Assembly (NCBI GenBank): GCA_051294375.1
Contig: CM119263.1
Coordinates: 24,223,657-24,287,656, forward strand
Direction: 5' to 3'
Origin: Paraspadella gotoi
Lineage: Eukaryota; Animalia; Chaetognatha
Length of the DNA stretch: 64,000 nt
This document shows, piece by piece, positions 1,471 to 49,868 of this stretch. The position numbers were made by a program, and so were the translations under genes. Each line of letters starts with the position of its first letter. The first letter of the stretch is position 1. The notes beneath the pieces are model-generated. The model did not search any database and was not told where the DNA came from. It saw only the letters and a list, made by a program, of their open reading frames with translations.

Positions 1471-2772
1471 CTGAGAGAAGGCGATCGGCTTAACAAAGTT
1501 GATCCATGTCACCGACTCGTGACACGGGGGCGTGGTGAGCGATCCAAAATAAGTGAAGAATTCTGGTGCCGCGCCAGGAATTAACGACGCAGGATTTACA
1601 CCTCCGATTGAGGTCAAATCCATCCAACTTCCTCTGAGACATGACGTAAGTCAAGGTTAGTATAGTATTGAATAGCATTTGGCCAAGTTGTTGCGAATCC
1701 GAAATTCGCCTCCTGGATAGCAGTCAAACCCATTTGGGACGAACTAAGTATTCGTTTACCAACCGTGAGTTACGTGTTCGATTCTCTCAGGATCAGGCTC
1801 GTTAAAGTGTGATGGTACCGGTATAAACACGCCATTGCAGGTCCAAAAACCTGAGCGTAACCTGTCGAGAGATTTTCTCACACCCTGGGCATCACAGACA
1901 CCCTCCCCGTTCCCACAAAGCTTTAATTGTCACTTCATTCTCAGCATCTCTTCGCTCACTTGAGCTTGCATCCCTCGAGCAAAATGTCGAAAAGCGGTTT
2001 TAGCCCCTTATGCTCAGCGCCGACGTTTATGAAGGCCCCCAACACGCAGAGACCGTCCGGCTTGTCGAAGGCCTCTCCGATGCTTCCGTAAGCCTCATTA
2101 AAGTGAACGAGGTGAACCTCGGCCGGGAAGGCGCGACCCTCGAGGGTGTGCTCCGACCCGTGCCTGTTGTCGTCGCCCCAATGAAAGTGAAATTGTTCGA
2201 GACGGAATCGACCCCGTAAGGGTCCTCCTAAATCATGAGTAGATGATTAAAGGCCTCGGCCACACACGCACCACCAAAAACCACTGATACTGCCCCCGAT
2301 CTCACCACTAAGCAACGATCTGGCGCCATCGATTTCAACCCTCAGCTGGCGTCCATCGTTCACGGCTTGCTTCGAATCTTTGGGGACATATTTCCACGAT
2401 AACTTGGCTTCCTCAAGGGCTCTGTACCATGGAACTTTTATAGGTCAGAATCCACTCACGTCGCCGGAAATTAATTAGCAACAGAATAATCACAGTGAAA
2501 ACCCACGGGTCTTCGACTGACGAAGAGTAGCCGAGGTCGATAGGCGACTGGCAATCTCCTAGAGCGCAGGGAAAATGTTTGGGCCACAAGACCGGTCCGT
2601 TGTTGTTGTTGTTATAGCCCCAATTTTCGAGAGTCAAAGGTTCGTTGAGCTGCGCCGCCTTTCCGTGCAAGGCGTTCGAGACGTAGCGAGACACGGAGTT
2701 GAGGACACCGGCAAGGAAACCCGTGTGCAGCATCGTCGACCCTCCTAATTTAGCGACTCGAGCGGAATGCAT
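1471..2772 (-). CDS. Alpha-carbonic anhydrase (multi-exon; 3' end not resolved)
   Basis: Exons encode WGY..GPVLWPKHFPCALGDCQSPIDL, QFHFHWGDDNRHGSEHTLEGRAFPAEVHLVH (all three Zn-ligand His present) and YFGSLTTPPCHESVTW. GT-AG introns keep the frame. Confidence 0.92.
1661..1937 (+). mobile_element. Solo-LTR-like insert with degenerate tRNA-like head and twister-like motif
   Basis: It starts TATAG and ends GTCACTTCA, resembling the termini of the 47.4 kb LTR (TATGG...GTCTCTTCA). A B-box-like GTTCGATTC lies upstream of the twister motif. There is no clean TSD. Confidence 0.55.
1797..1856 (+). ncRNA. Type-P5 twister-like ribozyme motif (T2 loop bases mutated)
   Basis: The sequence parses as GTGT(P2') GA TGG(T1) TACCGGTA(palindrome) TAA ACAC(P2) GC cattg CAGG TCCAAAAA CCTG(P4). 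P2 and T1 pair perfectly, but L4 ends in AA instead of GC. Confidence 0.7.
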
Positions 2773-3543
2773 GGGACGGAGAAATAAATGCGAATTAAAA
2801 ATACTCAGTTGGTAATAGTTTTATTTTGGATTAGTTTTTATTTTAATTTTCCTGGGAAGGGGATGAAGTATTCGTATAATATCATCGCTCGCAAATTTAG
2901 AATAACTTGATTTCGTTTTAAAACTAATAGCTGCAAAATTATTGTATGCAGACGGACCGATTAAAAACAATTTAATAATAATAATGCCGGATGAGAGAGT
3001 TGAAAACAATAGCATATAAATATCATATACGCGTGATGAAAATCGAACAAATGAAATACAGATAGTAAAAAGTGTGATGGTTCAGGAACATTTTCGACAA
3101 CGACGTTAATTAACGCTCTGATTTTATTTTAATCAACGGCACAACAAACGAACAAACACTATATACATGATTGGTACGACCTCAAAAAGAATTTAAATAG
3201 GAATGAGTTTTAATTTATGAGGAATAAGAGTTCGAGGAAAAAGAGAGGAACCGGGACGTTACGAGTTCCAGACGAAAACGGATGAGATTCAATGACATTT
3301 ATTACTACCACTTCACTGGAGTTCCCACGAACCTCGTCAAAAACCAGAACGTCATTATAACAACACGAGTCAATTTATTTCCTTATTAAGCAAGTTAAAA
3401 ATGTCGGGATAAAACATCGTCAACCAAGCTAAAAATTCTACGCTATTTAAAATTGAAAATAAAAAGAATTTATCTTCATTGATGATAATAAATGACAAAC
3501 GTCTACGGGGAAGGAGGCCGGGTCCCGCGACCCGCTTTCGAAA

Positions 3544-14700: not shown

Positions 14701-17700
14701 CAACGAGTTTTCCAAGGAGGAGGTTTTGAGTGAGACTGACGCTTTTTTCCCGCGGTTCGACCTCCGACGGACCCTCGTTGGAGGCGAAGACTCGAGAGGC
14801 GGTGGGGGCGTTTGCTGTTGAGGTGGCAGAGGTTCGGCGCTCCCCGATTTAACGGGAGTCGATTTTCCCCTGATCGCTCTCGATCCGGCGCTGTCCAGGT
14901 CAAAAGCGGCCACGCTGGGCGTCGCATTGCCCTTGGATGCCAGGTTAAATCGCGGAACTTCCCGGCTCCTAGGTGTGGTCCCTTCTTTGTTCGGGCCCGG
15001 GGCCCCGTCGCCGTCTTCACCGTCTTCGAATTTCTTGGGCTTTTTACGATTGTTCCTCAATTGCCGCGGCTCCTTGGCGCGCTCTATCAACTTCTCCTCT
15101 TCGTCCTCTTCATCCTCACTTTCCGCGGTGCATTCGGAACACGCCCACCCGAATTTCTTGGTCTTCTTCGGCATACGGGTGAGCGGCGGTTCTAAACAGG
15201 CCAGATGGTACCACTCCTGTAAGCAAGTGAATGTTGTGAGAGCTTAAGAATGGTTGAAAAGAAATGACCATCATTTTGAACGTAATCATTCTCACCTTGC
15301 AAGTGTCGCAGTCGATCATGTTAAACTGCTCATTCTTGCCATGACAATTTTTGCATTGGTGGAGCAACGTTTCAAGAATCCCGTTTTCGGGAGACTTTTC
15401 GGCATCTGAAAAATTATAGAGAAAAAAAAACTGAGTCGTTATGCGAAGGAACAAATCGCAAAAAAATCTAACCTTTCACGGGCGAAAGGGTGAGAATCGG
15501 GGAAGTTTCGGCCGGCGTATTCCGCGATTTCGATACTTTGATTTTCGCCCCAATCGATCCCCGAGGTTCCAAAGCTTTCGTCTGTTATCGATTGTCCAAT
15601 CATTGTCAACACTTTCGATATACAATGATTTTTTATTCGTCTCTCGCGTCTTACCTTAATGCTAAGCGCGCCTCCATGAGGTGGGGGCGGAACTTGACAT
15701 TTCCCTGAGATTCGGCGCCTCTGCCTTCGCAGAGATTTGGGCAACTCGTAGGTTTTACCGCTCACGCACTCGATCAAGCGCCAGAGGTGAATGAAGGCAT
15801 CCTTGACGGAGAAAAGATAAATGGAAGCATTAGATATATTGAGAGCGCAGGTTGAAGAAAGAATTGGTAAAATAGCTGGATACCTGAGTGGATTTGGTAA
15901 TCTTCTTCTGCTCTTCGGTCTTCTGAATCTCCTGCTCGTACTTTTGACGTAACTGGAACTCTTCCCTCTTCAAGTTTTCGTTTTGCTCCTCGAGGAAGAC
16001 TTGACGGCGACGAGACTCGGCGACGCGATTGTTTCGCTCCGCAAAATAAGTGATGAACTCGACGCTGAAAGCCGGGGCTACATATCCTTTCTTTTTTCCC
16101 TCATCCATCTGAAAATGATGAGGTTTTTTTCACTCAATATCAGTTGCATACTGATCACAAGGAATTCGAAACCTTCCTCACAGTACGATATATTTGTACG
16201 ATTTTGCGATTAGGGCAAATTGAATTCTTAGCAAATACCATATGAAAAATATGGTATTTGCTAAGAATTCAATTTTCGCTACCTGCAATTCTAAAACATG
16301 CTTCCGATGAGCTTGAGAATTCGTCACACCGATGCCCATTTGTTCAGCCTTTCTATGAAGGATCTCCACAGCTGAAGGACTGGACTCCATCGCCCGCGCC
16401 ATCTTTTGCGCCGGAATCCATGTTGGTAACCTCATGACGGTAAAAAGGTAAATTTACTAAAATTAACATTTAAATTTTGACATAAAATCGTGACAACCAA
16501 AACGAGACCCAAGACCGTCCAAAATATGAAACATTTAACCAACCTGTTCCCCCGGGAAACGCCGTATTTGGCTTGACGTTTGGCGAGTTTACGCTGAATT
16601 CGTTCATGACATAACGCATCGATAATAGAGTGAGATTTAAAACCACTGTGAAAGCAAGAAAAACACAGATCTTTAAGTTCAATGCACAGCGCTTGTTTTA
16701 AGGCAGTCTTTTACCGAACATGAGCTTGAGCCGCCATCCAATTGCGTTTATTGACTCTCGCAATGTCCTTGTCCACGTGCTGTTTACATGAGGCCCAATA
16801 CGGATCGGGTTCGCCCGGAGCCGCGCCTTTCTCCGGCCGCGTCTCCGATAAAAGACCGAGACGCTGGGCGCAGCTGGCGTGAAAATGGGCCCGACAAAGG
16901 CCCGCATCGCATCCTATTGTGATTCCCGTGCGACTAATAGACTCGTCTTCGCACAATTGGCACTCTTTGCTTCCGAATCTTACAAAAAAAATTATCAAAT
17001 ATCGGAGGTTTTAACCAATAGATACTTCTTGTCATAAAGAGAAAACCTCACCTCGAAGAGGCAATCTCGAAAAGGGTTACGTTTGAGAGAGTATCAATGT
17101 TGGAAAAGGCAATGCCGGGGACGTAGAGCGCGCATATCATGTGAATCCAATCGCCCATATCCGTCTCTTTGAAGATGCCGCCGCGATTGGGGCAAACCTG
17201 GCACAAAGGATCCAGGACGCCTGCCTTGCATGAGTCACAAAACCAAGGCTCGGTGCTGTTTGAGAAGAAGGGAATCAAAGGAGGCCAAGATTAAAAAAAT
17301 TTAACAAGGACCACTCTAAATCATTGCAATGCAAAGGTCGTTCTCATAGAGTATAGTTATTTCGTGCTTTTCGTTTCGTTGCGTGTGAAATTTTGTTTTG
17401 TTTACAAACAACTTATTTGCTTTTATTTTCATTTTCAACTTTACAGTTCGTTTATTACGTGCCTTGCCGAGGAATCGGTGGACGCTATAGACTGCGTATC
17501 GGAGACACCGTAGCAGCCTTCGTGGACACAAACGCCGCAAGAGTCGCACTCGACGATCTCGTCGTTCGCCTCCGACGTCTGCTTGAGGCAGACCGAGCAG
17601 ATGAGAACCGACGAAGAGTGAAAAGTCGATGGCGCCATCGTCGTTAACTTGAGATTCGCAATTGAAAAAATATTAAAGTATCGTGATCTCGCCAGACGTA

Positions 17701-20700
17701 CTTTCAAAGAAAATTAAAAAAATCTTAAAAGCACAAATATCCATCCTTAAATTTTTATATATAAAAAAAAACACGAATGATTGATGCGATGATAAAAAAT
17801 TATCGTAACTCTCAAATATTTTTTTTAATAAATTTTAAAAAAAAATTTCATAAATCAAAAATTATATAATATTATATTTTTTATACTTAAAAATTGGTAC
17901 AGGTTTTATTTTAATGCATTAAATAACAATATGATTAATGCCTAGCTTTTAAGGGTATTTTAAAATTCAAAATTATTTAAAATTTATTTAATTTTAAAGA
18001 AATAAAAAATGTTATATGTTAAATTATTCATTATTTTAAGGGAACCGCACTTATTGGGGAGAATCAAAAATTTACAGCGAATACATGCTCAAATAAAAAT
18101 TTATACATTTTTAAATATACTTTCAATGAACAAAAATTTAATTATATGGCTCTATACCATAGTAACTAATTTTTATAATATTTATATATATATTAATATA
18201 TATTAATATATATATATTTACATATATTGTTATTAAAAATCTAATTTATTTTTTTGCTAAAAATTTCAAAAAAATGTTTTTTTCTATTTAGTAATATAAT
18301 AATTTTAATTAGGCTAATACATTCAGAAAAAGCATCTTTAACAAAAACGCTGTATATATTAGCATTTAAATTTCATCGGCTATAACTACTTTTATTTACT
18401 ACTAATAAATATTAATTTATAAAAAAATAATTTATTTTTTTAATTTTTGTAGTAAGCTACTTTTATATATAATATTATCCGTAAAAACTTTTACAATTTT
18501 AGAACAGGCTTTTTTAAAATTTTGATAGCAATTTGAATTTTTCGTCAAAGTTAATAAAAAAAATATATATTATGTATATCATTTTTAAAAACAATGAATC
18601 CAAATTTTTAAAAAAATCTTATTTTAAAATTGTAATACAGGGAGTTCCATCTCTAATGGAACTAACTTCAAGTGCTTACAGCACAAAAAAAAATTATGAT
18701 AAAAAAAGCAAGACCAAGTTAATTCTTTTTTTATCGATATAAAAAATGTTTGTAAAATCCAACGGCAATTACTGTAATTAAAACTTTGTATAACATGTCA
18801 CAGAACTATCGACTTTCTAACATCTGTAAAAATGGTAAGAATGGCAGCATTTCCAATAAATGTGAATATTTTGAGAAGTTTATGGTTACTTAAGGTAAAT
18901 TATTTTAATAGATTGCATTCTTCTAACATTTTTTTAAATATATACCAATTTTTGTAACATATTCCTTTCTTTTTCGTTGAGTTGATGTTATTAGAAAAGT
19001 TTGAAATTGAATTCAACAACGAGATCGTTGTTGAATTCAATTTCAAACTTTTCTAATAATACCAATTTTTATATCATTAATATTATGTTTTCCTATCCTA
19101 ATTATTTTTATTACATTAATATTCATTAGTACAATATTATTTATTCTTCACTAATAAAATTTTAATTTATATTTTAAATTAAAATTTTTTAATATACTTT
19201 AATATCAAATTAAAAAATCTTAAAAGCATAAGGATCGTCGCTATTGTATAAAAAAAATATGGACCCATGACAAACTTTGACACTCAAAAAATCTAATTTG
19301 ATAAAGGAAAACTATGTTTTATATATAAATCAATTAAAAAAATAATAAAGTACTGAGGAAAATAAAGTTAGTTTCTGAAAAAAAAAAAACTTTTTCATTG
19401 TCAAATAAAAAAAAGAGAGAAAGAATAAGAGAGAGAGAGAGAGAGAATCGTTTTCGGACGAATCAGCAGCGGCAGCAGCAGAGGCAGCAAGAAAAAAAAA
19501 AGAAATCAAAAGGCAGCAGCAGAAGCAGCAGGAGAAAAGAGAAAAAGAATAAAGCCCCTGCAGAGCCAGCTGCAGACACGTTTTTTTCCCCCGATGAATC
19601 AGCCTGGGGAAAAGAGAGAGAGCTATATATAATTAAAAGAGAAGAGAGAGAGAGAAGGAGATATAAAAAAATAATAGAGGAAATTTGTTTGCTTAGATAA
19701 AATGTAAACAAAAGATATTTAATAACTGTCCTCACCCAATTTCAAGGACCTCGATGATGCTTCATGCACCCAAATTTAATCATGAAAAGGGCGATCAATA
19801 AGTTGGAACGCCGACGACGACGACGCCTACGCCACTTATGCGCAAAAGCGTTACATGATCGTCGCAAACGAAAAGCGATTGCAACGATAAAATGAGTGAT
19901 GACAACAACGACAATGACTAAGAAGCCCAAGTAAACCTAAATCTCGCCCAAAACGGGCCGAGGCCTGTCTGGCGAAATAAATATACTTAGATATTTTGGC
20001 GGTATATTCACAACGCTTCACCCCAGACTACACTCAACTAAGTAATGGGTCAGAGGGGGAATGCAGCACTCCAACCGCGCATTCCATCAGTCATAACGAC
20101 TTCCCGCCGCGTTGACAAAGCGAAGGGGTATATAATATATATTATATAAGCGGGCCCGTGGCAGGCGGCGTCACTAAAGGACGAAATCGCCTAATGCCAA
20201 CGGGTGTGATGTCCAACCCAGTTGGGCATAACAGGCAACCCCTGCTGTTGCTATAATATTTTATTTTACAAAAGTTTGCCTTAAAAACTATTCTACAAAA
20301 TATAAAAGAACCCTACCCACCTTCAAAGGTTCTTCGCGCGCGAACTGCGGAGTGGAGTTTCCGGTGGCAAACCCGATGGTCGAGTTGTCATTGGACCACT
20401 GAAACTCGCGCTCCGTCATCTGCGCCTCGGGCGTCTCGTCGGCGCCGGACTTTTCCAGGTCAGAACTCCCGTTGAGGACGTCGGAATCGTCGCCGGATGC
20501 TTTTTCGTCTGGATCACGGGGGGGGGGGGAAACAAAGGTTTTAGGGAGCAGAAAAACACTCTTCCTTTCCAAGCGGAGTGACGCCCACCAGAATCATGGT
20601 TTGACTCATCGGGTTCGGAATTCTCTGACTCGGACGACTGAGTCGGTTCTTCGTTCAATTTGTAGTCTTCGTCGCTGAAAGGGAAAGAACGACACGTTTT

Positions 20701-22840: not shown

Positions 22841-25800
22841 TCAATTGCGATCCAACTGCGACTTGGAGAAAGAGACGCGAAGGTGCTGCTTGCGGAACTG
22901 ACGATTGTGCATTCCGATCAGCGCGAGCACGGCCTCTTCCGTCGAATCCAATGATAGCAGCGCCATCTTTTGCGTCTCGTTAAAGAACTACAAGAAAAAA
23001 AATTAGATTCGAATCGACGGAATTCTCCTACCAACAAATTTCCAAGACTTACTTTGAACTGATGAACCGTTCCGAAGTCCTTGAAATTTTCGATCAGCTC
23101 TTCTTCCGTCACTCCCTCGGCGATGTTGGACAAATGAAGAGTTGGTCCGGGTTTGAAAATGTTCGAGCAATTTTTGGATCCGGCCTTCGGAAAGAAGAGT
23201 TTTACAAATAAGAAAAAATCCTACTATATCTTTTAAAAGGCAATGGTATTTACCTTCTTGTATCGGTGCAAGGGAGAATTGGAGAAGTCCTTGGTGAGTC
23301 CGCTGGCGTTGGCGGGATCGTCCCTGGGCATGGAGACGGTGTTGTGCTTCGAAATGCGGACATTCATCGGCTTCCCCCAGCACACGAGCTTATCCAGATG
23401 CTGACGGGCGATTTCGGCCATCCAGGGATCGGACATCTGAATGAGGGCCGTGTCCTGAACCAAAAATTTTTACTTAAGGACCAGTAGACAAATCAATTTC
23501 TTAAACTAATTCAAATTCTTACCTTCTTATTGAAAAGAATCTTCACCCTTACAACGTCCCCATATACTCCAAAAAGAGTAAATAGATTGTCGACTGTAAG
23601 AGTTAATAACGAGATTAAATTGATAGCCACCTCACGCCTCACAATACAAGTCAGGACAAAACTTCTTAACGGGGTAATTCGGAACACTGACATATAAAAT
23701 ATTTTTTAAAAAATCTTAAAAGCATAAGGATCGTCGCAATCGCATAAGAAAAGTCTGGATTGACGACAAATTTTGATACTAAAAAAAATTAAATTTGAGA
23801 AAAGAAAATTAGATTATAAACAGAAAGAAAAATTATATTTTGCGATAGTCAATTAAAAAAAATAATAAAGTACGGAGGAAAATTAAAGTTACAGTTTCTG
23901 AAAAAAAAAAAAAATTGTCATCCCAGGTACTCTGGGAGTGAATAAACGAGACTGGGAGAGAGTCTTGATTGAAAGCTTGCAGCGACCTGCTATGTCATTA
24001 TCTTGTAAGAGTGATGGAGGCCTTAAACCACCAAAGCCTGTCCAAAGTCAGGGGCAAGATAGCTTATTTATTAAATGAATGGATAATTTTTAGTTTGGTT
24101 GTACCAATTTCATAAAATTCAGCTCCTTGTATTTTGATGCTAGTGCGGAGTACAATAAGTATTCCCCGATCTAATACTTAAGGGAGTGGTCTTTTCATAC
24201 AATTGAAACATTCTTTGAAATATATACCACTTCATTGATAGGGAAGCCAGGTACTCTGGGAGTGAATAAACGAGACTGGGAGAGAGTCTTGATTGAAAGC
24301 TTGCAGTGACCTGCTATGTCATTATCTTGTAAGAGTGATGGAGGCCTTAAACCACCAAAGCCTGTCCAAAGTCAGGGGCAAGATAGCTTATTTATTAAAT
24401 GAATGGTAATTTTTATGTTGGTTGTACCAATTTCATAAACTGATCAGCAGACGCAGCCCCTTTCAATTATTAAAGTTACAGCATTCGGCTGCTGCTGCAG
24501 CATTAATTAACGCTGATGAAGGCTTGCACTGAAAGCTAAAACATTTCCGTGTGAAAATAAAAATCGTTGTTGAAACTACATGGTGACAATTTTACAAGCG
24601 CCGGTAAAAAAAAAAACGCTGTCATTTGCAAACCCATAAAGATTTTTTCAATGTTAAAAATGAATTTAAAAGTAAAAACCCGAACTATTTATTAAAGCGT
24701 AATACAAATTATAAATTTAACTTTAATTAAAATTCTAAAAAGTTAGGAACGAATAACATTATACTAATGAACATTTATGTATAAGAAAATTGTATAAATT
24801 TTATAATTTACGCAGTAGGCTATATTTATACTAGTACTTATCCAATAAATGTTAAAATTTCAAAATAGTTTTTTGTAAGATTTTTTTTGCAGATTTAAAT
24901 TCATCAAAAGTTGATATAAAGAATTAAATAAAAATTATTTTATTAAATTGATCAAATATAAAAAACTCTATATTTTAAGCTGAAAATTAAAATTTTATGT
25001 ATTAAATATAGTTTTTTTAATATTTAATCCACTTAAAGAATTTTTAAAAATAATTTATATTTTCTTTTATCAAGGAATTCAAATCTGCAATTAAAATTAA
25101 AAAAAACCTATTTTAAATTTTTTAGATTTTATAAGGAGAGTACTTTATATAAATATAGCTTACTGCGAAAATTAAAGAACATAAAATTAATTTTTTTTAC
25201 AAATTAATAATCACTGATGTTATGTTGTTCATAATTGACATTTAAAATTTTTGTATATAACTTTCACTACGCCCTACTATTTATATATACAAATTTTATA
25301 AGAATAGACTTTGATATGCCTCAACAATGATAGCAAGAAGATGGATTTGAAAATCGTATTTAATTTTTAAACTCAATTTTTTTAGATTTGAATTTTTTCT
25401 CTTACTTTCACTTTTCTACATATGTACTATGTAGCAGATTAATGTGTGGTGACTAAATGTGTGTCTAAATGTGGATTATTTCAAATGAGAAAGTTCCTCA
25501 ACCTCATTTGCATATTGATATTTTACAATGGGAATTGAACATGTTTGTTTGTGGTTCAATTAATAGCTAAATAATTAATTATTCAATTGTCATAATTACT
25601 GAATTATACTTATAATTATTCTTATCAATCCATCTGACTTTTGTTCATTTAGTAAGTGATGAGATATGCCGTTGTTCACTTGTTTCTGTTACCTTTGTAC
25701 TTTTTCATCTGCTTTCTCTGCCTTACCTGTACATTCATTTAATAAATAAGCTATCTTGCCCCTGACTTTGGACAGGCTTTGGTGGTTTAAGGCCTCCATC

Positions 25801-28800
25801 ACTCTTAGAAGAAATGAAGTGGAAAATATTTCAAAGAATGTTTCAATTGTATGAAAAGACCACTCCCTTAAGTATTAGATCGGGGAATACTTATTGTACT
25901 CCGCACCAGCATCAAAATACAATAATGTAATATAATGTAATAAAAAATAATTAAGCCCTTTTTCAAAAAAAAAAATTGCATAACAGCATCATTAATTTAT
26001 TTTTTTTTATAATAATATCCTTATAAAATCATAAAATTTCAAAATCATATTTTTTTAATTTTAAAAACAGTTTCGGATTCGCCGAAAACAACGAAAAAAC
26101 TTTTGTAAAATATGTTACATAATATTTTTAGGTTAAAGCTGCGAAAAATTACCAAAACTTTTCATCATATAATAGTTTCGATTACAAAGCGTAAAAAAGT
26201 GCAGGATTTGACCTTTTTTTCTATTTTTGACGCTGAAGACATTGAAACTTTTAATAACATATTTTATATTTTTGATCTAACTTTTTATGAAGAATCAGAA
26301 TCTTTAATAAAAATTTAAAAACAATTATTTTAATAATTTATCATTTTATAAGGATATTATTATAAATATATTGTAATTAATGATACTGTTCCTCAAACAA
26401 TATAAGCAAAATATTTTTTGTACTCCTTAAGCATACTATCTCACATCTAGATATCCTTGTTTGTTCACTCAAATAAAATTTATGTTCCCCAGTGCTCCAC
26501 TCTACTGTACACGTTTCTCTCTCTTTTGTAGTCACACAGTTTTAGAGTCAGACTTCAGGTCCGTCGCCAAACGGCCTTTTACGGGACAAAGATGCCACGT
26601 CACTCAAGTCTACCTTTTCTACAGTAGTCCTATGGTTAGAGCCACGAGCCCCAAAGACTGCCCCACAAGTACAGCACAAACCCAAAGACTTGCGGGCGAA
26701 GGGCCACCAAGAGGCCACAAGACTCAGACTTTTGTGATGGACTCGACAGTCAAGTAACCTTCAAACCGCAAAGTCTTAAGTTAATTCTCCACTGAACTTA
26801 TCCGAATTACCCCGCAATACCCTATGATTATAATAAAAAAAACGACAAATTTACCATTAATGCTTTCCTCGTCGAGATTGGACACAAGCAGTACGGCGCC
26901 GCTGCCGCCTCCGCTAAATTGGCCTGGCGGGGCTCCCATCATTTGATTGCCTCCCATGCCCATTCCACCGCCCATACCGTTTCCCATGCCTCCGCCCATT
27001 CCACCGCCCATTCCGCCTGCCATTCCACCGCCCATCGGTCCTCCCATCATCATTCCGTGGGATCCTCCAGGAGGCGAGTAACCACCAAGCATTCCACCGC
27101 CACCTCCCATACCACCGCCGCCACCACCGCCACTACCACCACCCATCTGCCCATCGCCGGATGGCAGATTAGGATTGGTAAAGTCCCATGCTCGATCGTT
27201 ATTGAACTTGACGTTTACCGAGCTTAATGAGAAAACGGTTGTAAATAATGTGAATTTCACCTTTTTCGTCTGCTTTATACTCACGTGATCTTAGAGCCTT
27301 CTACTCGAAGGTTGCAACATCCGTTGTAAACGTTTTGACCGTGAAGTGCAAAACGAGCTTCTTCCGCTGATCGCTTGTTGGCGTACTGAATCAGAGCCTG
27401 AAGAGAAAGTTTACTCGATAAAAATCATTTCGTTGAAACCCGCCGCTAAAAAAAATTTACCAAATGAAAACGTGAAAAGATTTTTACATTTTGAAAAGAG
27501 ATACTTAAAGTCAAGACGTACTCATTTTTTATGTATAAATATCATTTCTTTCGGTTTACTTCTACTTTAACAGGAAGAGGTTAAAGATAGCTTAGAAAAT
27601 GATCTCCCTGCTCGATAGCTAATGTTTTTGAATTTTGTCTTACTTTGTGAACGATTTATAAACAAGTTTGAGCAAACAATCTCGGATCTGCCCACGATCA
27701 TTAGTATTAATTAATTAATACAAACTATAAAATAATATTTTAATTAATAAATTAATTGGATCCGAAATGTTTGTTTTTGGATCTTTTTGTCACTGACCAC
27801 GACAAAAGCTACGACGACGATAGCGACGAGGACAATAATTCCGATAATGATTGACTTGATTAATTGATTAAATAATTAATTAATTTATAAATAAATTGAT
27901 TGAATAATTAATCTTAAATGGTGAATGCAAATGAATTTTACCAATAATAAATAGCCTTTGGGGTAATAATTACTATAAAAATAATGTACAAAATCTTAAT
28001 CCGAAATAATAATTTTTACGCACACGCTGGGTAATTCTCGAAAGTTAACAAAGACTTGTAACTTTTGATTAATAAATTTAGCATCAGACTTACTTGAAAC
28101 TTATTGTTCTTCGTAAAAGTTAGGATCTTTTGCACGACTCCGTATTTCTTGAAAATGATGGCCAACGTTTCCAGGGTCACGGGATATACCATATTTTCGA
28201 TGGTCACATGAAGCACCGCTTCCTGGCCGGTAGGCGCTGGGGCCGCAGCGAAGGTGTCTCCGTTTGATTCGAGCAGACCTGCGCTTCCGTTTTGACAAGC
28301 CTGTAGCGCAGCCTAAAAGATGGGGGTGTATTACAAATGAAGTAAAAAATTAAAGAAAAGGATATTAATTCAATCTACCTGTGCTTTCTCATTTGCAATC
28401 GAATGAGCAGCATCAGTTTTCAGTTCCTTGTGTTGAGAAAATTGGACGAATACAGGTCTACCACCCAGCATCGGTTGAGCCGACCTTTAAATTGAAAAAA
28501 AAAAATTATGTGAGGAAAAACGATAACACAACGGCCCTCAAATGTATATAGAGCCAAACCTGTGAAAATAATTCAGCATCATCTGGGCAGCGCTTTCCAG
28601 CTCGAATTCGATAAACGCTTGATTCTTTTGTTTCATCATAAGCAAGTTAGTGATCTTGCCGAAGGGCATGCAAAGCTGAAAAAACAAAGAATTGATTAGA
28701 TTCTGCACTTAACAAGTCAGAATTAAAGCCACAACTACCTACCTGGATGACCTCAGTCTCGGAAACACCTGTCAGGATGTTGCGGATATGAACGACACGA

Positions 28801-32356: not shown

Positions 32357-32497
32357 TTTCTGGAAAGAGTCAGCTAAGAGACAGGCAACATTAAAGAGGC
32401 GAGAAACGAAAAAATAGACCACGACTTTCGAAACCGTCGAGGGAGGCTGCTAGAGAGTCGGGATTGGGGCGGGGCAATCGTTGATAAGAGCGCAGAA

Positions 32498-33821
32498 TCA
32501 AGCGCTCATAACGGGCCGTGCGCTAGCGGCCTCGAGCGTTAAACCACTCCCAGCAAAGCCCGAGGCTCCGCGTTGCATGTAGATGACGTCTTTTTCAGTC
32601 ATTACTGTTCCCTTGATCGGATCCCGCATAGGATTGTCCAGTTTCAAAATCTTCTCTACGCTTTCCAGAGTTACCACTGCTCCGGAATGTCGCAAAACGC
32701 AGCACGGAACGGAGTTACCTTAATTTAATCGAGCAAAAAATAATGTACGAAAATTATCGAAATAAGCAATGGGAGGGCACAAAAACATACCAAGAGCGTC
32801 GCCAGTGACGGCGCACACATATCTAAGTTGTTTGTTCAACAAATGAGTTTTAGTGTCGCCGTCGTTGACTTTTTGAAATTTAACTGAAAAAAGTTTTTAC
32901 GATTAAATGTTACGGCTTCAATGGATATTCCGAAATAGATTCAGTCCTTACCGGTAATTAGATCTTTCATTTTGAGCGGTTTCTTGCTCATGGGACAAAG
33001 AACTCGCGTGTCGGGTTTTTTAACCAATTTTCCCGAGTCCGACGGCGTCAACGAAGGGATCCAGAAGGCGGGAAGTTTTGATTTATCTAATGAAGTCGAA
33101 GAGTAAAGTTTTGATACGCGAAGTCATTCCAGAATTTTTGGAAAAAAAACTTACTCTCTCCCGCCATGTTATTCTCACAGCCACTAGAACTGGGTCCCGG
33201 TAAAGGATCTACTGGAGCGGGAGAAGTTTCTCTTTTAGAAGGACCAGGAGCGTCGGTGGCTTTAATAAGCGCCAATGGATTTTTTTTGAATGGATCCAAA
33301 GGCTTGCTAATGATGGAACCTTCTTGCTTCATAAAGTCTTTTACCTGAGTAATTTATAAGTTAAACATTTACAAACGCAACTCCCGTAAAGTTAAAATGA
33401 AAGTGTTAGCCACTCACTCGTTCCTCCTCTTTTTCCTTCACGCGTTCTTTCTGTTCGATTTCGTCCTTAGTTTTCTTTCGCTCGTATTCCTTCATTTTTT
33501 TAGCGACGAGTCTTTTTTGTTGAACCATGTATTCTGAACAATATAGTACAATTTTTGTTTCCAGGGGTAAAAGAAAAAAAAGAAATAAAACATATCATAG
33601 TACTTACCGATTATGGCCTCTCGCTCGTACAAGTAACCCTCTTCGGTGATAACAGGGTCTTTGCAAGGCTGCAAGGAAAGGTTGCAGCAATCGAACTCTT
33701 GCATAGAGTCTTTGCTGAAACGAGCCTTCTCCGTCCCGTATCCCGAGGCGGCCGTGTCCTTTTGCTTCTCATGGTAGGAATAAACGGAGCTGGCAGTGCA
33801 ATTCCTCGAGTGCCGCGTCAT
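32498..33821 (-). CDS. NOSIP: Nitric oxide synthase-interacting protein
   Basis: MTRHSRNCTASSVYSYHEKQKD..FDCCNLSLQPCKDPVITEEGYLYEREAI; LPAFWIPSLTP; QRGASGFAGSG. Confidence 0.95.
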
Positions 33822-37300: not shown

Positions 37301-40300
37301 TCGGGCTCGGGTTTGTCGACCAACGTCATCGCCGCCTCGGGCTCAGCCGCTGCCGCCGATTCTTCGGGCGGTCGAAGCGCGACTTCGCGGTCGGGGAACG
37401 ATCTCGCTTGGGCTTCGGGCGGAACAAGGCGAGAGTTAAGCGATGAGGCGGTCTCGGTTAAGCGACGATTTTNNNNNNNNNNATGAAACTCGCGCGAGGT
37501 ATCTTCGCTAGAAAAAAGTCGATGAGATTCGGGAAGGATGTTTGAGATGTGAGTGGATAACAAAGATAGGTTTTGTCCGTTGGGAATCGTTCGCGTCGGC
37601 GCTTCTATGTTAGAGTATCGACTTAGTGCGTTGTTGGACGAAAGAATATCCTCGCCGGTCAAAGTCGAACGCGGTCGAGAATCTTGGCGAGGCTGGACCG
37701 GCTCGTTCTGCCGGGGTTCCTCGTCCGAAGGCACATGAGGAACTGCAGGTTTTAAGGGTTGCTGAAAAACGTCCGAGGGAGGGACCATCGAAGATTCTTG
37801 AAGAGGACCGGGTTCAAATAGCTGTACGATTAATGATAAAGTTTAAAATAGAATGAAATTGGTACAACCATTATAAAAATTATAAAAAAATATATTTTTA
37901 CTTGATGATTCAGTAATGATGGGTGAAGTTGTTGTTCCGAATCAAATTCCGTTTCGGCGGAGAGTCTTTCGGACTGAGAAGGATCGCTGATAAAAGTTAA
38001 GTGTTGGTGACCAGACGAATCACGGTGGACAGACGGCGAATGATCGAATCGCTCATGAATATGCGTAATTGTTGCCCCAGGTTGCGCGTGTTGCGTGGTA
38101 GTTTGCAAGTTTTCAGGCGTAGCAACAGAGAGAGAGTTAACGCTAGAAACTTGCTCAATGGTGTCGGACTGAAGATAAGTCTGACCGATAGCTTTTGTCG
38201 AAGTCTCTCGGACCTCTAAAGTCGAAGACTGAACAAGGACTACAGAGGCATCTTTTTCAGAGTTTCCTTCCTAAAAAAAGTACGGAAATACGTATTTAAA
38301 GTACGTGATTTATAATGACAGCAAAGAGCTCACCTGATTTTTTTCAAAATCCGTTTCACATTGAACGACCAAATTTTTCTTGTGAGTCCTCATGTGTTTT
38401 CTACAATTTACATTAGTCTTGAAAGTCTTTCGGCAATAAGGGCACATATATGGTCGAGTTTCTGAATGAGTGCTCATGTGACGTTTGAGCGAGCCATTGG
38501 TAGTGAACTTGGTGTAACATATTGAGCAAGTAAAAGATTTTAAACCTTCAATAAATAAAAATTTAAACATCAGGACCAAATATCGAGGGGCTGAATGAAG
38601 TAAGCGAAAAATATTACCGAGATGAGTCCTCAAATGAGCCTTAAGCACTCCCGTTGACACAAAAGAGCAATTGCACTCCATGCATTGAAAAGGTTTCTCT
38701 CCAGTGTGAGATCGTATATGCTGCTTTAAATGACTGCTCTTCTTAAAGGCAGCTATGCAACGATTGCAACGATAGGGCCGATCTGTCAATCCCGAACGCA
38801 TATGGGTCATTTTCGGACGAAGTTGCACGAAGCCTTTATAATTTAAAAAAAAAAATAATTCGTAAAAATTTATACAGCGAATTTTCGGGCGCGAGTTAAA
38901 AAAAAAGTTGAATAACATTGGATGCAACTATAACCCTTTATCAATGACCAAAATGGCGAACCTTTATCACTGATGTAAATTGGTTGTTGCAGAGCTTCGT
39001 CCGGAATTTCCGTTTCCTTCTTAAGCCTTCGCCTCCTTTCTTCGCGGGCGGTTTTGAAATGAGAAGCCACGTGACTCTTTCGATGACCCGAAGTACGAAA
39101 CACTTTGTCGCAATATGGGCAAGCGTAGGGTCGAAGTCCGGAATGGAGTCGCAAATGAACTTTCAAAGAACCGGAGGACGAAAATTTTTTCCAACACTGA
39201 TGGCACCGGAACTCTTTCGATCCCGCATGGGTTTTTAGGTGAGCCCCGAGTGTACTCTTGACGGCGAAGGTACGAAAACACTGAGGGCACTTAAACGGAC
39301 GTTCCTGGTAGGACGAAATCAGTTTTTTTATTTAAAAAAAGATAATTTTTTTTACTATTAAGTGACATTACCCTCGTGTGAACTCGGATGTGACGAACTA
39401 AATCCGAGGGTTTTTTAAATTCCTTGGTGCAGTAGTTGCAGCGATGCCAACAGACTTTTCCATCTTTCCGAATGACGTGCGTCCTGAATACGCCAGACGC
39501 TGGATCCGCTATAGACAAAGTCTTCATCCGAGGCGACAGGGTATTATCGGACGCTTCCGCAGCTCCCTCTTCACCGAGGGTTTGGGCGGTAGTTGGTTCA
39601 AGGGATGGAGAAGGTTCACAGGAAGGATTTGGCAGCTGACTTCCCGTGAGTGATGAAGGTTCAGAAATGCAACAGGCCGCCGGGGCTGGCTGCGGGTCGT
39701 GAAGCGACGCGATGATTGATCGATCTTGTTCCCGATGCTTTGCCGATGCGGAGGCAGAATGATCGGATATTGCGGTGACATTCTAGGGATTAGTAGAATG
39801 GCCTCGTGAAAACTTAAATCTAGGTAAAGTAGGGAGAGAAGAAGAGAAGAGCGACTATCCTTGTAACCCACCTGACTTTCCGTAGGAAGCGGATTTATAA
39901 CAACGGGTTGTTCCTCCCCAATCAAAACTCCACAATTTCGAAGAGCTTGGGTCAGAATATCCTGCAGAGTCACGGGACGAATAAAGAAACAGAAAACAAA
40001 TATATAATTGGGATTCAGCACATTAACCTGTAATACAATTCTTTAAAAAAAATTGACAACGTTAGACGTCATTTATCGTACTTTTTCATGATCGGCGAGC
40101 TCGCTGTAAGTTTGTGAAAAATTTAACTGGGCTTGCGTTTCAAAACCGGAAGGTAGATTGGCCTCTTGCCCTAAAACTGATTAATTGGTTAATAATTGCT
40201 TTCAAGTGAAAGAGTGATTAGTAGTACTGAACTTATTGGGAGTCATCGAGCACTTACCAAGCTGTTGTGGAGCAACTTGAGCTTGAACGGAACTACTTTT

Positions 40301-43300: not shown

Positions 43301-43468
43301 TAAAAGCAAATTTGAAAATCAGCCTTTAATCCAAGACGACAAATAAAGCAAATAACTACCTGTGATCAAAGAAAGCGGTTGAGCCGATCCCACTATGCTG
43401 GGCCACGTTGCTTCACCCAGCGCGACCGAATCGAGGGGCACCAACTGAATGCCGGACGCCATCGTCAT
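34317..43468 (-). CDS. ZNF236: Multi-C2H2 zinc finger protein, ZNF236-like
   Basis: Many C2H2 fingers, with recurring [47 protein letters not shown] and [10 protein letters not shown] motifs characteristic of ZNF236. Confidence 0.85.
40387..40510. mobile_element. Structured solo-LTR-like family B, truncated copy
   Basis: tgtggcggtatattc...ggaacgca..tgcgttcc..ctaacgacttccctct. Confidence 0.7.
42862..43101 (+). mobile_element. Degenerate solo-LTR-like insert with a tRNA-like (A/B box) segment
   Basis: It starts TGTGGTCAGTAAAAT (cf. TATGGTGGACTAAAAT) and ends GTCATCTTCA. It contains a B box (GGTTCAATCCC) and a possibly decayed P4/L4 (cctggtttcaaactcaag). No TSD is visible. Confidence 0.45.
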
Positions 43469-43807
43469 CGGGACATAAGCAGCGTCACTAGATGGCTCCG
43501 CAAATATTTCTTGGAATTTGAGTCGCCCGTTGAATAGTTCATCTTGAATCGAACATTAAGTTTATATTTGGGGCTGTTTTTAAAACGAAATTAAATCAAC
43601 GTAACAAAATCCAAAACGATCTTCACCATATAATTAGTATTTATTGTAACCAATTTTAAATTAATCATGAATGAATTGAATTAATAAACAAAATATTTTT
43701 TCATAAAATATCTAAGAAAAATATCTCAATAATTCCGAATTGATTCTACATATATGTATTATTACGTATTGGAAATTCATCAAAATGCATCGACGATCAA
43801 GCGTCGA

Positions 43808-44495
43808 TCATTCAACCAGAGACGAATCCAACTCAACTCGACGATCGGGATTCTCCAAAATTTCGACGTCGACCCCGGAAATCTCGGCGGCCATTTGGTT
43901 TTTAGCGGCTTGGAGCGGAACTCCCATGCTGATCATTCGGAAATATCTTTTGAAATTTGGATGGTCTTTGGCTTTCACGCCATCGGACGGGGTGTCTGAA
44001 ATAATTTCTTCGACAGGGTCGTCGAGTACAGTGGGGGGTGGCTGAGATCCGCTCAAAGGCAATTCTTCCGATGTTTGGGACGGTGGAGCGGATGACGTCG
44101 GGCCAGCCTCAGCGGGCTTTTCTAAGCTAGGCTTCTCTCCTACATTTTCCAGACCCGTGATCGAGGACAATTTCGCCTCCAATATCTGCAGTGTCGCCTC
44201 TACCTTCTCCACTCGAACGGAAACTCGTTCCAACCTAATTATTTCGGCGCAAATCTTTGCCAATTGGATAATTTATGTATAAGATAATATTTTCGAAGAC
44301 AAGACATTTCCTAGCCCGTTCTTCGGATGTTGATTCCTACCTTTCCTCGCACGAACAAGAAAACTTATTAAGAAAAGATACTGAATGAGCGACAAAGTGA
44401 TTGACGAAAGAAAGCAAGCGCCGCGGATTCATTGGGTCCAAAGTACGTAAATCGATGCCCGGGGAAACGAGTGGAAGGCCCCGGGCGTCCATCAT
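43808..44495 (-). CDS. WASHC3: WASH complex subunit 3 (CCDC53)
   Basis: MMDARGLPLVSPGIDLRTLDPMNPRRLLSFVNHFVAHSVSFLNKFSCSCEER / VEATLQILEAKLSSITGLE / KDHPNFKRYFRMISMGVP; two exons. Confidence 0.92.
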
Positions 44496-44685
44496 CAATG
44501 CAAAATACAGAGTAATTAAAACTAAAACGATTTGAATAAGAATGAGGTATTGCGGATTTTATAACATAATGAGAAATGAACAACAACGAAGCATTTTTAA
44601 TACAAAACAATGGGACTACAGCCAAAGAGCCAGCTCTTAAAACGATAAAACATCTGGATAATTGATAAATTGTATTCACGTTTAT

Positions 44686-47600
44686 TCACAGCCAACTCTC
44701 CATTTCTTTAGCGTATTCTTCCTTGGGAATGAAGGGTCTGTCGATTGCCCTGATCATGAATTCTCCGCAAAAGAGACATTCGGCGGCGATAAAATCGTCC
44801 AATTCTTGCTTTATTTGTTGTTTTATAGTGATAGCGGGAGCGCCTAAGTGAGCGCATAAAAAAAATTAAGCAAGAGATTATAATTATTAATTAATTGGCA
44901 TCGTCGTACCCGATGCTGTAGAACCCATCGAGACACGTTCGCTACCAAGATTACCAATATTCTCCTTAGCGGTCACCTCCTCCAGTTTACGTATCAGCTC
45001 TTCGACCTGGAATGTAATTAAATTCTTCGAACTAGATCGCAGTTAATTATGTGGGGAATGAGGGAACTAACCTGGCGCCTTTTGTTAGGAGTTGCTAGGG
45101 GAAGTATTTCTTCGATGATGCAGTCAGAATGGAATTTGTGGCCGCAAGGAAAAACATAAAATGGCCTGAGAAAATACAAAATAGCATCAACACAAAAAAC
45201 AAAAGTATTTCCGCTTTTTCTTGTTAACCTCACTACGACGGGATAAGCGCATATTTCGCATTTGTCTTGCGTTTGAACAAATGCGAATCTTGATCGGAAC
45301 ATTGCAATGTCTGAGCGGATCTGGAAAACAAAATACTAAAATTGCTGACGCGAAAAAAAGGCAACATTAACTCATCAACAGCTTTATATATAATTACTTG
45401 AGTGGCTGATGCCGTCGCTTCTTCCATCTCTTTTTTGAGCGATTCAATGTGATCGTTATATTGATGCAAGGATTTGCATATAGGTTCTGCGAACGAGTTT
45501 TTTTTTGGCACAACGAAGACTTAGAACGAATTTAAATTTTAAAAATTACCTTTAAAATGATCGATGGTAACAAAATCCGGGAAAAAAGGAAGGACGTCCT
45601 CAATCTTGAGCATATCTCCCGGCGCTTCTTGCAAGACCGCCATCGCCGCCTCCATGTTTGAAAGACCGACGCCGTCGCCGCCCTCGTCACGTTCAATGAC
45701 GAAGCGAGCGATGCGAAGCCACAATTGTTTCCGAACCTTAAAGCACAACAATTTCATAGCGACGAGCTAGAACATTCAAAAAATTCCAGACTACTGCTTC
45801 AATTACATCCACACTAAAAGGTTTCTTTCACAGACCTCATCCTCGACTTCGCACTGATTGGCGTGCATCTTAGCCAAGGCGACGTCCACCTCCAGTGCTA
45901 ATTCGACGGCCTCTTCATGAAGGCCCATGACAGAGTAGATCTTGACGCAGGCAGCCTTGTGACCGTGCTCGGAGCAGAGGCGGAGGGCGTACTTGAGATC
46001 GTAGCAGACGTCAGAGTCGGAACCTTGCAAATCGAGGTACTGCAGCAGAGCGTCGGGTTGAAACTGTTTCAGGGGAAAAGGAGAGATTTCAATTAACATG
46101 TTAATACGGCTTAAATTCAAAACGCGTACGAGACGAAAATCGTTTTACTTGACAATAAAGGGACAAGAGATAATTGTGGATGGCTTGGTCATTGTTCTGC
46201 AAATGATGAACGCAAAACTCCAAATAATTTATAGCCTCGAGGGTTTGCTCGGTAGGCTTTCCGCCCGACGTTCTATCGCAGCGAACGAGAGCGGGAATTA
46301 ACCTGAAAAGTAACAAAAAATAAAGTTTTACATAACCAAATTAAGGATAGTCCCAAAAGTTACCAAAAACACAAGCGCAAAACCTCTCTACTTTTATCAT
46401 GTTTACAACTCAATTGATTGTTCGAGGGGCGAAATTATACGCAAAAAATAAGGTTCTCTGCATTTCTTTAATTTGCTAACAGACAAATTAAAGAAGAATA
46501 ACAACTATAATGCTTTTAGTTTTTGAATTTGGCAAGGAAATCCAGCCTTTAATCTTTATTTGCTATACAAATTGGGTAAATTTTAATAGTTAGTATTAAA
46601 TTTTCCTCCCAACCATTATAACATAATTTACATAAATAATTGGTTCCCATGTTTTATGTAAAAGTCCGTCCTCATGAGTACATTGATGAAGATTAAAATA
46701 TATGAATAGATGAATATATGAATGCTTTCCAAGCTAATAATTTGGCAAAAAAAAAAATCATTAATGATTTTAATTCATTTTTTTTCAGTAAGTTTTCATA
46801 TACATGTTTCGACTCTGTAGTTTAGAGTCTTCATCAGTGTTTTTTTTAAATACAATTCGTTACCAAAACAAATCAAATTGTTTTTCTTCTAATTACTAAA
46901 AACAAGATGGATATAAAGTTTTGATGGAATCAGACAAGTGGAAAATAGTTTAAATAGAAAAAACAAAGGTCACATTTATAATTTTAAATTCTTTTTAAAT
47001 TTTAAAGTGTCTTTCTCTCTCAGTTAAAATGATTGATTGACTGATTGATCAGTTGATTGAATGATTGATTTATAGATTCCTTTGATTAACCGCTAAATTA
47101 TCGTGGGCAGATCCGACATTGTTTGTTCAAACTTGTTAAAATCTGAATTCATCTTGATACACTTTTAAGTACATATCAACAAATGTCCAAACCTTGAAGG
47201 ATCGAGCCTGTGCTTGGCAGCCTTCCAAATCTCTACTGTTTCTCGTGGGGCGTTTTGCATGAGAACTGGAGAGAACTTGTAGTAGAGATCAGGATCAGAT
47301 TGTTTTCTCAGGGCGACGAGTGCGTCCGACCATCGGTCGGTTTTTATGTAGTGATTGATGACTCTGAAAATGGTCAATGATAATAACATTTTATGGTGGA
47401 CTAAAATCCACCAACCGTTCATCAGCGGCCATTGGTGCCGGAGGCAAGTCATTCGCCTCCCAACCCAAAGGTCCGGGGTTCTAGCCCGGTAGTCGTCTGG
47501 CAGTTAAGAGGGACGGGGCGCTTAACCCGCCTGTAACATGGTGTTACAGCCTGATCCGAAGCTCAGGGACTGCTTATATTGAACGGTTCTGTCATTAACA

Positions 47601-49868
47601 TATATCAATAATCACTGTCTCTTCATTGGTGAGACCGACTTCCGAACACAACAGCAACAACAACAATTTCAGGTGACATGCCTCAACCTGGCGATGGACT
47701 TTCCGCCAATAACTTATCAGGCAACATGCCTCAACTTGGTGACGCACTTTCCACCAACAACAATTCACTGAAGAGACGCAACAGACTTCTCCCTACGGGA
47801 GGGGGAATGTATGGTGGACTGAAATCCACCAACCGTTCATCAGCGGCCATTGGTGCCGGAGGCAAGTCATTCGCCTCCCAACCCAAAGGTCCGGGGTTCT
47901 AGCCCGGTGGTCGTCTGGCAGTTAAGAGGGACGGGGCGCTTAACCCGCCTGTAACATGGTGTTACAGCCTGATCCGAAGCTCAGGGACTGCTTATATAGA
48001 ACGGTTCTGTCATTAACATATATCAATAATCACTGTCTCTTCAATTTTCACAATAAAAGCGTCATGCTTTATCCAAAAGCTTCTCAGAGTATAATTCTAT
48101 CTCGTTCATCGAAAAGAAAACAAGAATATAAAAAAATTACAAATAAATGGTATGAGTAAACCCTTTAACTATGCCTCGAGTTATAATTTAAGTTATTAGT
48201 TCCCACCTTTCATAATCGTGCATAAGATGCGCGAAATATACGAGATCCTCCAAAGCGCCATGAGAGGCAATCAAGGTGTAGATTGTGCTTTTATTATGAT
48301 CCAGACATTCCTAAATGGTATTTCGCGTCAGCGATCCACCTTTCAAACGGACAAAAGCCTAAGGGTCAAACAAATTCCCTATACCTTCAATTTCGACGAG
48401 GACAAGAACTTTTGAAACTCCTCTCTGATGTTTTTGATCTTTTCTTCGAGAGAGTCGTCGAAGGCCCCTCGATCTCGAAGTTTTCCCATCGAATCCAAGT
48501 AAATTTCTATCAACCAGGTCGTCAGCATCGTAATTTGTGTTTTCTCGTTGGATTTCATCGCTGAATAAAGAATGAATAAGTTTAGATGAAAATGTCAGAA
48601 TGAACTTTCAATTCCTCAAGTACCTCCTAATTTTTTCATCAAGAACTTTTTCAACGCCTCAGTTTCGTTTAATTTTATAAACTTTAGCGTGATATCTTCA
48701 AAGGACTTCCCGGTAGTAAGCGCGTACACCTAAAAACACAAAAGGATGCCAATGATATCTTTAAAACATACACCGTTGCCAGTTATGAACCTCGGCGGCT
48801 TCTGTATATTTCTTTTGGGCGTATAAATGATCGGCCTCCTTGCAGTAAATCATATCTAATTCCGCCGGATTGTTTTTGTCGCAATATTCTTTGGCAATCT
48901 TGAATTCGTTAGAGTCAAGGTAAACGCGCCAGATGTCCCTTTAAATATGAAAATTTTGGGAAATCATTAACTATAAATTATAATGACATTATAAAACCAA
49001 CGACAAAAATAACACGAAAATAGTTAAAAAATAAAGGTAACCGACCTTGACTCGCGAATTACTTTGTACTTGAAAACAGCTTGATTAGTGAAACACCAAA
49101 TAAGTCCTTTCATCGGATCGCGCCACAATCCGAGCGGCTTGCCGAGTCGTTCTGCGGGTACAGATAATGCACTGACACGTTTCGAACGGGGGAACAAAAA
49201 AAGTATTTGAATAAACTTCCGAGGCCGACCTGTGTAGGCATCGTCGTAGACGCATTCCTCGTTGAGACGGCAAAAAGCCTTGAGGCGATCCGGATAAAGA
49301 ACGAGAACATGAAACTCGGTGAGGACAATGTTAACGGGTTTTACACCTTGTTCCATTCCGTTGTTGTAGTGAATTAGCTTAGTCTCCGCAACAACTGGGG
49401 AAAAACGAAGAAAAATAAAATATTGAAGAGACAGTAATGATTGTTGTGAATAAGTGACAGTACCGTTCAATATAAGCAGTCCCTGAGTTTCGGATCAGGC
49501 TGTAACACCGTATTACAGGCGAGTTAAGCGCCCCATCCCTCTTAACTGCGAGGCGAGTTATTCCAACAGAAGAAAATTAATAAAAAAATCTTATCGCTCA
49601 ATATTTATCCGAAAAAAAAATTCTTAAAAGCATAAGGAATTAAGGATCGTCGCAATCGCATAAGAAAAATCTGGATTGACGACAAATTTTGATACTAAAA
49701 AAAATCAAATTTGAGAGAAGAAAATTAATTTATAAACAGAAAGAATAAAGAAAGAATAGAAAGGAAAGAAAGAATAGAAAGGAAAGGAAAGAAAGAATAG
49801 AAGGAAAGAAAGAATAGAAGGAAAGAAAGAATAGAAAGGAGTTTTTAGATTTTTTAAAAGAAAGAGAG

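Follow-up and report, generated by a model that had tools for sequence, protein, structure and literature searches.

The type-P5 arrangement of the twister ribozyme is said to have been described by Roth et al. in 2014. Here we describe seven twister-like motifs in 64,000 nt of the genome of the chaetognath Paraspadella gotoi (GCA_051294375.1, contig CM119263.1, positions 24,223,657 to 24,287,656 of the forward strand; this whole stretch is the window below), which fall into a motif found at one locus of the window (A) and two repeat families (B and C). They agree with the Twister-P5 model of Rfam (RF02684), the best twister model for B, in element order, GA, U^AA, the L4 loop UCCNAAGY, the T1 and T2 pseudoknots, helices P2 and P4, and an open P5. 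They differ in having a loop-less palindrome of 6–8 nt instead of the P1 hairpin (a stem plus about 14 nt), and in a bulged P2 of 3 bp in B and C. Because P1 is not closed as a hairpin, the motifs are classed as a variant and not as standard members of RF02684. In Penelope-like elements and amphibian retrozymes, minimal type-I hammerheads likewise have a helix shrunk to a short palindrome, completed between tandem copies in repeats of 150–450 nt (PMC4209133, PMC7229834), and those with a palindromic helix-III loop act as dimers (PMC4209133, PMC7229834, PMC6765202; statements on published systems refer, here and below, to extracts of the papers cited). The ribozyme class is an unrelated one, and the dimer has been shown for hammerheads whereas it is only predicted for the motifs described here. 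From the anatomy of the folds and of their elements, the high abundance of both families and the conservation of the family B core, all observed directly, we favour on balance the reading that twister-type folds in the P5 order, with P1 cut down to a palindrome, occur in two abundant, non-coding, retrozyme-like families, and that cleavage is predicted to be helped by pairing between copies. Catalytic activity of the folds is predicted with high confidence, and a retrozyme-like use appears probable.

All seven motifs that a sequence-only reading of the window had located were recovered, with the parts ascribed to them (Table 1). Each runs in the order P5 strand, TAA(A), P2′, GA, T1 (YGG), a stretch of 6–8 nt, U^AA, P2, T2, an optional P3, P4, L4 (TCCRAA..) and P5. 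The assignment to a type-P5 twister-type fold is well supported, as GA, U^AA, T1, P2 and P4 are present in 7/7 and the P5 order is kept. L1 bears the catalytic GA on its 3′ side, and the cleavage site is U^AA. T1 pairs with L4 in every motif, once through a U-G pair, and is C-G in one family where it is T-A in another; T2 is formed in five of the seven, both of its pairs being broken in A and one in C3. The covariation proposed earlier was found as such (T1 CGG:CCG against TGG:CCA, T2 GC:GC against AC:GT, and the bulged A of P2 in both B and C), but it represents three lineages and not seven. P4 stays paired throughout, as had been claimed, and P5 has 5–7 bp in 5/7 motifs; B3 lacks the 5′ P5 strand, and P5 of A reaches 3–4 bp at most. 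Four copies are therefore intact (B1, B2, C1 and C2) and three damaged (A, B3 and C3). The palindromes were also present as described: TACCGGTA in A, AGGCCT in B and GGCGCT, with a terminal G-U, in C, exactly between the GG of T1 and U^AA. In all three the stretch at the place of P1 is self-complementary along its full length (G-U allowed).

As described earlier, B is unrelated to both A and C. The latter two have in common a B-box-like motif 21–22 nt upstream of the fold, and there is a weak colinear similarity between A and the tRNA-like part of C (in one of six comparisons, with a score reached by 12 of 2000 shuffles and 15 of 1235 real windows). The B-box-like motif upstream of A is possibly part of a tRNA-derived head as in family C, and A may belong, as an old member, to a group of C-like elements.

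A descriptor that specified GA.GG, TAA, TCC.AA, a P2 able to pair and a P4 no shorter than 4 bp, and made no demand on palindrome, T2 or P5, matched exactly the seven loci in the window and none besides; a sequence-only model search of the window returned the same seven loci and no further ones. In 1512 dinucleotide-preserving shuffles the descriptor matched 31 times (0.02 per shuffled window). Two of these 31 decoys were palindromic, against a palindromic P1 in three of three lineages of the window. By simple arithmetic, three independent palindromes would arise by chance with a probability of about 3e-4, rising to 4e-3 when A and C are counted as a single lineage. The sole twister matches from Rfam were those of Twister-P5 to the three B copies, at 25.8 bits against a gathering threshold of 37.6, and the alignment placed 0 nt of the copies opposite the model's 14 P1 positions. 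The A and C copies (4/7) were unmatched by the Rfam twister models even at E <= 10. In a MAFFT alignment, L4 of C fell one column off that of B and A. Whole-motif folding z-scores were weak (C −2.0, B −1.0, A +0.4), as expected because pseudoknots are absent from the folding model.

A stricter pattern, derived from B and C and leaving P1 open over 4–10 nt, was searched against viral, metagenome and GTDB contigs, collections which hold little animal DNA. It matched at 36 loci, 2 of them viral, 22 from metagenomes and 12 from GTDB. A P4 of at least 4 bp was absent from all 36 and a palindromic 4-mer was present in one, whereas all five matches within the window had both a P4 of 4 bp and the palindrome. 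With the patterns used, therefore, no prokaryotic or viral relative of the motifs was found in these collections. A looser pattern gave 29 viral loci, which by eye resembled chance matches, and a scan of the window for hammerhead cores gave no match.

Family C (47392–48043, 652 nt) is an element resembling the terminal-repeat retrotransposon in miniature (TRIM). Its long terminal repeats (LTRs) are identical at 231 of 234 positions, and a primer-binding-site-like (PBS-like) sequence begins with TGG at 47627, 1 nt past the CA of the LTR. The integrated end starts with TA and not TG, as judged from the position of the target-site duplication (TSD) and from contig ends; a TG lies after the polypurine tract (PPT) and before the 3′ LTR. 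In contig alignments the family ends sharply at 47391/2 and 47625, the internal part joins back to the LTR start, and the flanks favour ATAT family-wide, compared with ATTT at the window copy. Abundance was taken from assembled contigs of four runs aligned to the elements. In run X1, 18,022 contig records were placed on one LTR and the internal part of C, and the depth summed over them came to about 300 for flanking sequence, some 4 million for the LTR and some 0.8 million for the internal region, which is a very high abundance and not a copy number. The tRNA-like segment of the LTR has a GGTTC box B and a box A that departs from TRGCY. ARAGORN called no tRNA in this segment; a tRNA-sized fold of the LTR, taken from the second copy, had a z-score of −2.8. 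No T4 run occurs in the element, and we regard the segment as a putative RNA polymerase III (Pol III) promoter. An internal frame of C, the one scanned, had no match to any retroelement family. A 7-bp hairpin lies at the very start of each LTR (47394–47413 and 47812–47831).

Plant LTR retrozymes (PMC4918200) resemble C in being non-coding and in having a ribozyme in both LTRs, a PPT and a 4-bp TSD, and their PBS has a putative counterpart in the PBS-like site of C. C differs from them in its animal host, in carrying a twister-like fold and not a type-III hammerhead, in the tRNA-like LTR segment and in its 418-nt unit. Metazoan retrozymes have been described as having no LTR, PBS or PPT (PMC7761336). 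Among animal elements, Helenus/TRIMp3 (PMC10886601) shares with C a size below 1 kb, two LTRs, a PPT and a 4-bp TSD, and its PBS and tRNA-derived LTR segment have candidate counterparts in C; the extract reports no ribozyme, and the published LTR consensus entries are TG...CA, unlike the TA start of C. Since its integrated end is TA and not TG, C is called Helenus-like. A loop-term search of the Helenus consensus file, in which line breaks can hide matches, gave no twister context.

Family B was also very abundant in run X1, with 22,418 contig records placed on it. Its contigs have a 3′ end fixed at 24113–24115 and a depth that declines toward the 5′ side, which fits the pattern expected of target-primed insertion. 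The head-to-tail joint of the 324-nt unit was seen in 33, 23 and 9 contigs of runs X1, X5 and X9, respectively; X9 may be an RNA run. Family B thus resembles the non-LTR retrozymes, which also consist of head-to-tail units within 150–450 nt with one ribozyme each, although that ribozyme is a type-I hammerhead and the one in B is a twister-like fold. A preprint links non-LTR retrozymes to Penelope-like elements (10.64898/2026.07.22.740005). The pattern of ends in B is compatible with an origin from, or movement by, such an element. We also considered whether the frames upstream of the motifs might be GIY-YIG tails left by Penelope elements, but this received no support, and a 44-aa frame in the B unit had no Pfam or protein match. 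A 31-nt fragment of the B 3′ end, without the ribozyme, lies at 37853–37883 on the minus strand. Run X10, which carries a second organism code, yielded two diverged low-depth contigs each for B and C, a weak hint that both families may also reach a related species.

Variation within family B was scored as variants of at least 3% of depth in run X1, excluding three positions where the window copy alone differs from more than 96% of depth. Variable positions numbered 0 of 52 in the paired or catalytic core, 3 of 11 in the unpaired linker and 17 of 108 in the flanks (23935–23998 and 24062–24105; Fisher p 0.0016, with positions that are not independent and depth counted per contig). When only G/C sites were considered, 0/25 were variable in the core and 13/41 in the flanks. 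All seven motif copies lie within introns of minus-strand genes. The four intact copies and A are antisense to the host pre-mRNAs, and the two sense copies, B3 and C3, are both damaged. On very small numbers, this pattern fits selection against active ribozymes in pre-mRNA.

The sequence-only reading had proposed that P1 forms between two copies. Its premise that the palindrome would make a strained hairpin in cis was borne out, at +4.7 to +5.6 kcal/mol; a palindrome duplex between two strands came to −8.3 to −10.9 kcal/mol. A hand-drawn swapped dimer lay below two monomers by 13.1 (B) and 11.7 (C) kcal/mol, at standard state and without pseudoknots. In unconstrained folding of the natural B tandem, the palindromes were paired with p 0.93 and the swapped P5 helices formed with 0.86 and 0.67. 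When the six palindrome letters of B were permuted, both P5 swaps were retained by 4 of the 30 non-palindromic orders tried out of 108, and by 8 of the 20 other palindromes tried out of 23. The unit RNAs as a whole folded only modestly better than shuffles (z −2.3 and −1.75). Pairing between copies is thus predicted for the B tandem, where it is plausible, but not for the C tandem. The further argument that the motifs occur as tandem pairs is weaker than proposed: the pair in C is the two LTRs of one element and that in B a tandem unit, and a unit-length RNA needs two cuts with or without dimerisation. We consider dimer-assisted cleavage moderately probable.

Several observations weigh against this reading. 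Folding of the natural C tandem gave a palindrome pairing of 0.0, and the folding models leave out both pseudoknots. Conservation of the palindrome amounts to three lineages, two of them possibly related, and the 0/6 variable palindrome positions in B are not significant alone. The comparison of core and flank variants covers family B only, the orientation pattern rests on four insertions and A, and no autonomous partner for families B or C was found. Finally, in a set of about 1,950 type-P1 twisters, in which P1 is open-ended, cleavage is not reduced by defects in P1 (PMC11662667); a 6-nt linker may therefore permit cleavage as a monomer.

The most serious alternative is that of monomeric mini-twisters, in which each fold cuts alone and the palindrome is a vestige, of one pair and a tetraloop, of the P1 of a common ancestor. 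Such elements would still behave as retrozymes, their tandem copies merely setting two cut sites. P1 is reported to be dispensable in type-P1 twisters (PMC11662667; PMC8501958), the model of the C tandem leaves the palindromes unpaired, and most hammerheads of invertebrate retrozymes cleave as monomers (PMC7761336). Among known systems, the twister variants of Perere-3 in Schistosoma (PMC8501958) resemble the motifs in having a weak or absent P1 in an animal retroelement. They differ in being of type P1 and in their place, the 5′ end of a LINE that is autonomous; the TSD completes their P1, and the extract mentions neither palindrome nor dimer. Against monomeric cleavage, self-complementarity of the loop is not required for a cis hairpin, but the three sequences, all different, are self-complementary throughout, compared with 2 of 31 decoys, and the cis hairpin is energetically unfavourable. 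Moreover, in the P5 order P1 would have to bridge T1 to the scissile U, unlike the open-ended P1 of type-P1 twisters. We regard cleavage as monomers as unlikely.

A second alternative, that cutting by the ribozymes only trims read-through transcripts or sets an end of a linear intermediate in retrotransposition, with no circle, has precedent in the non-LTR elements Perere-3 and RTE, whose 5′ end is trimmed by twisters (PMC8501958, PMC7761336), and the fixed 3′ end and graded 5′ truncation of B are as target-primed insertion would give. We judge it improbable, since the cut sites lie inside the repeats, some 90–130 nt from the element ends, two cuts in C would remove the terminal redundancy needed by linear LTR replication, and head-to-tail joints of B were present in 33 contigs of X1. 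That the motifs are non-catalytic relics, a structure of ribozyme origin that either serves for recognition or is a passive passenger of repeats amplified recently, would suit the damage in three of seven copies, the Rfam scores, all under the gathering threshold, and the loss of diversity that recent amplification brings by itself, but is very improbable given that catalytic and pseudoknot positions are invariant beside variable flanks and that T1 and T2 carry compensatory changes between families.

Under the favoured reading of copy-assisted cleavage in retrozyme-like elements, C would be transcribed from the tRNA-like Pol III promoter in its LTR, no T4 run interrupting the element, and B by read-through. 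Cleavage at U^A in both copies of one transcript would excise a unit-length RNA of 324 nt (B) or 418 nt (C). In the cutting complex the two palindromes would pair into a single 6-bp helix, shared by both cores as their P1, and each core of the swapped pair would join one copy's 5′ half to the other's 3′ half. A host ligase may then circularise the unit RNA, and the lone ribozyme within the circle would cut poorly, so that the circle is protected. Reverse transcription would be supplied in trans, for C probably tRNA-primed by an LTR element and for B target-primed by a Penelope-like or non-LTR partner. A bolder version is that twister converged on the dimer trick of hammerheads and cleaves solely as a domain-swapped pair in unrelated animal retroelements, C being the first animal LTR retrozyme, a TRIM with a tRNA promoter that replicates via a 418-nt RNA circle; this we put forward tentatively, as possible and not as probable.

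Full-text searches, whose scope excluded subscription papers, the alignments of Roth 2014 and preprint supplements, found neither a palindromic or dimeric twister nor a retrozyme with a twister, nor any animal TRIM carrying a ribozyme. In the supplement of Craig et al. on Naiad elements, the 3′ tail of Naiad_Mley (PMC8557442 File S5) contains, by eye, an unannotated P5-order twister-like fold with a P5 of 6 bp, P2 and P4 of 4 bp each, and T2. Both sides of T1 are altered in compensation, giving CG:CG, and the 22-nt P1 region contains two 8-nt palindromes, so that the geometry differs from the single palindrome of A, B and C. The fold occurred in 1 of 18 tails inspected (of 54) and at 1 of 53 loop-term places, and the motif is therefore patchy among Naiads. 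The word twister is absent from the main text of PMC8557442. The tails preceding Naiad-1_Pfla and Naiad-3_Chem in File S5 contain a different compact structured motif with a self-complementary stretch. The fold is a real twister variant, new within the scope of these searches, in two kinds of retrozyme-like element, and the dimer mechanism proposed for it is likely.

The window is intron-rich animal DNA, with Pfam matches to exons for carbonic anhydrase, PHD/C2H2 fingers, NOSIP, CCDC53, RRM and Vps18. For the NOSIP exon, the ten best relatives, all JGI or Logan proteins, are 85–90% identical, and the named proteins listed reach 75% at most. Motif A, suspected at one point of overlapping coding sequence, lies in an enlarged intron of about 320 nt in the minus-strand carbonic anhydrase gene. 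The B insertion (23923–24439) is in an intron of the RRM gene, which we take to be PTB-like, and C3 is sense to its host gene, Vps18. A further moderately repeated element (19214–19398, 23710–23921 and 49626–49748) adjoins both the B insertion and C3. A 4.2-kb tandem duplication (51981–56224 and 57001–61234, 99% identity) lies beside N gaps and is either a recent duplication or an assembly or haplotype artefact. Long inverted repeats resembling miniature inverted-repeat transposable elements (MITEs) are found at 965–1157, 16204–16288, 18982–19065, 25982–26390 and 61162–62014, and the Rfam miRNA matches in the window are MITE-like hairpins under threshold.

Table 1. Positions of the twister-like motifs, the elements that carry them and other features of the window
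Feature	Position	Strand	Description
B-box-like motif	1776–1784	+	21 nt upstream of motif A
Motif A	1796–1870	+	Decayed P5-order twister-like fold; palindrome 1816–1823; predicted cut 1824/1825; T2 broken, P5 weak
Family B insertion	23923–24439	+	1.6 head-to-tail units of 324 nt, 5′-truncated, 3′ end fixed family-wide
B1	23999–24061	+	Intact twister-like fold; palindrome 24018–24023; predicted cut 24024/24025
B2	24323–24385	+	Intact twister-like fold; palindrome 24342–24347; predicted cut 24348/24349
B3	25752–25814 (fold), within copy 25732–25922	−	Family B copy with internal deletion; 5′ P5 strand gone; sense to host gene
NOSIP exon	33597–33821	−	
TSD of family C	47388–47391 and 48044–48047	+	4 bp, ATTT
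5′ LTR of family C	47392–47625	+	234 nt, TA...CA; holds C1; 3/234 differences from 3′ LTR
tRNA-like segment in LTR	47425–47497	+	A-box-like motif 47433, B-box-like motif 47478; directly 5′ of ribozyme
C1	47500–47573	+	Intact twister-like fold with P3; palindrome 47517–47522; predicted cut 47523/47524
Internal region of family C	47626–47809	+	184 nt; PBS-like site, 48-nt duplication, PPT 47797–47807
3′ LTR of family C	47810–48043	+	234 nt; holds C2
C2	47918–47991 (in 3′ LTR)	+	Intact fold; palindrome 47935–47940; predicted cut 47941/47942
C3	49476–49549 (fold), within copy 49419–49556	−	5′-truncated LTR copy, 86% identity; T2 broken

Dimer-gated cleavage has so far been described for hammerheads. 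If the favoured reading is true, retroelements have converged, through two unrelated catalysts, on one switch by which tandem RNA is cut and the monomer circle stays whole. The definition of retrozymes is based on hammerheads, and their LTR type is known from plants; with family C, animals, twisters and Pol III promoters would be added. A ribozyme of 60–75 nt gated by a 6-nt pairing could also serve circular-RNA tools. As Rfam misses or under-scores the motifs, very abundant ribozymes may lack annotation in invertebrate genomes, also within Naiad elements, which have been reported to be without canonical hammerheads.

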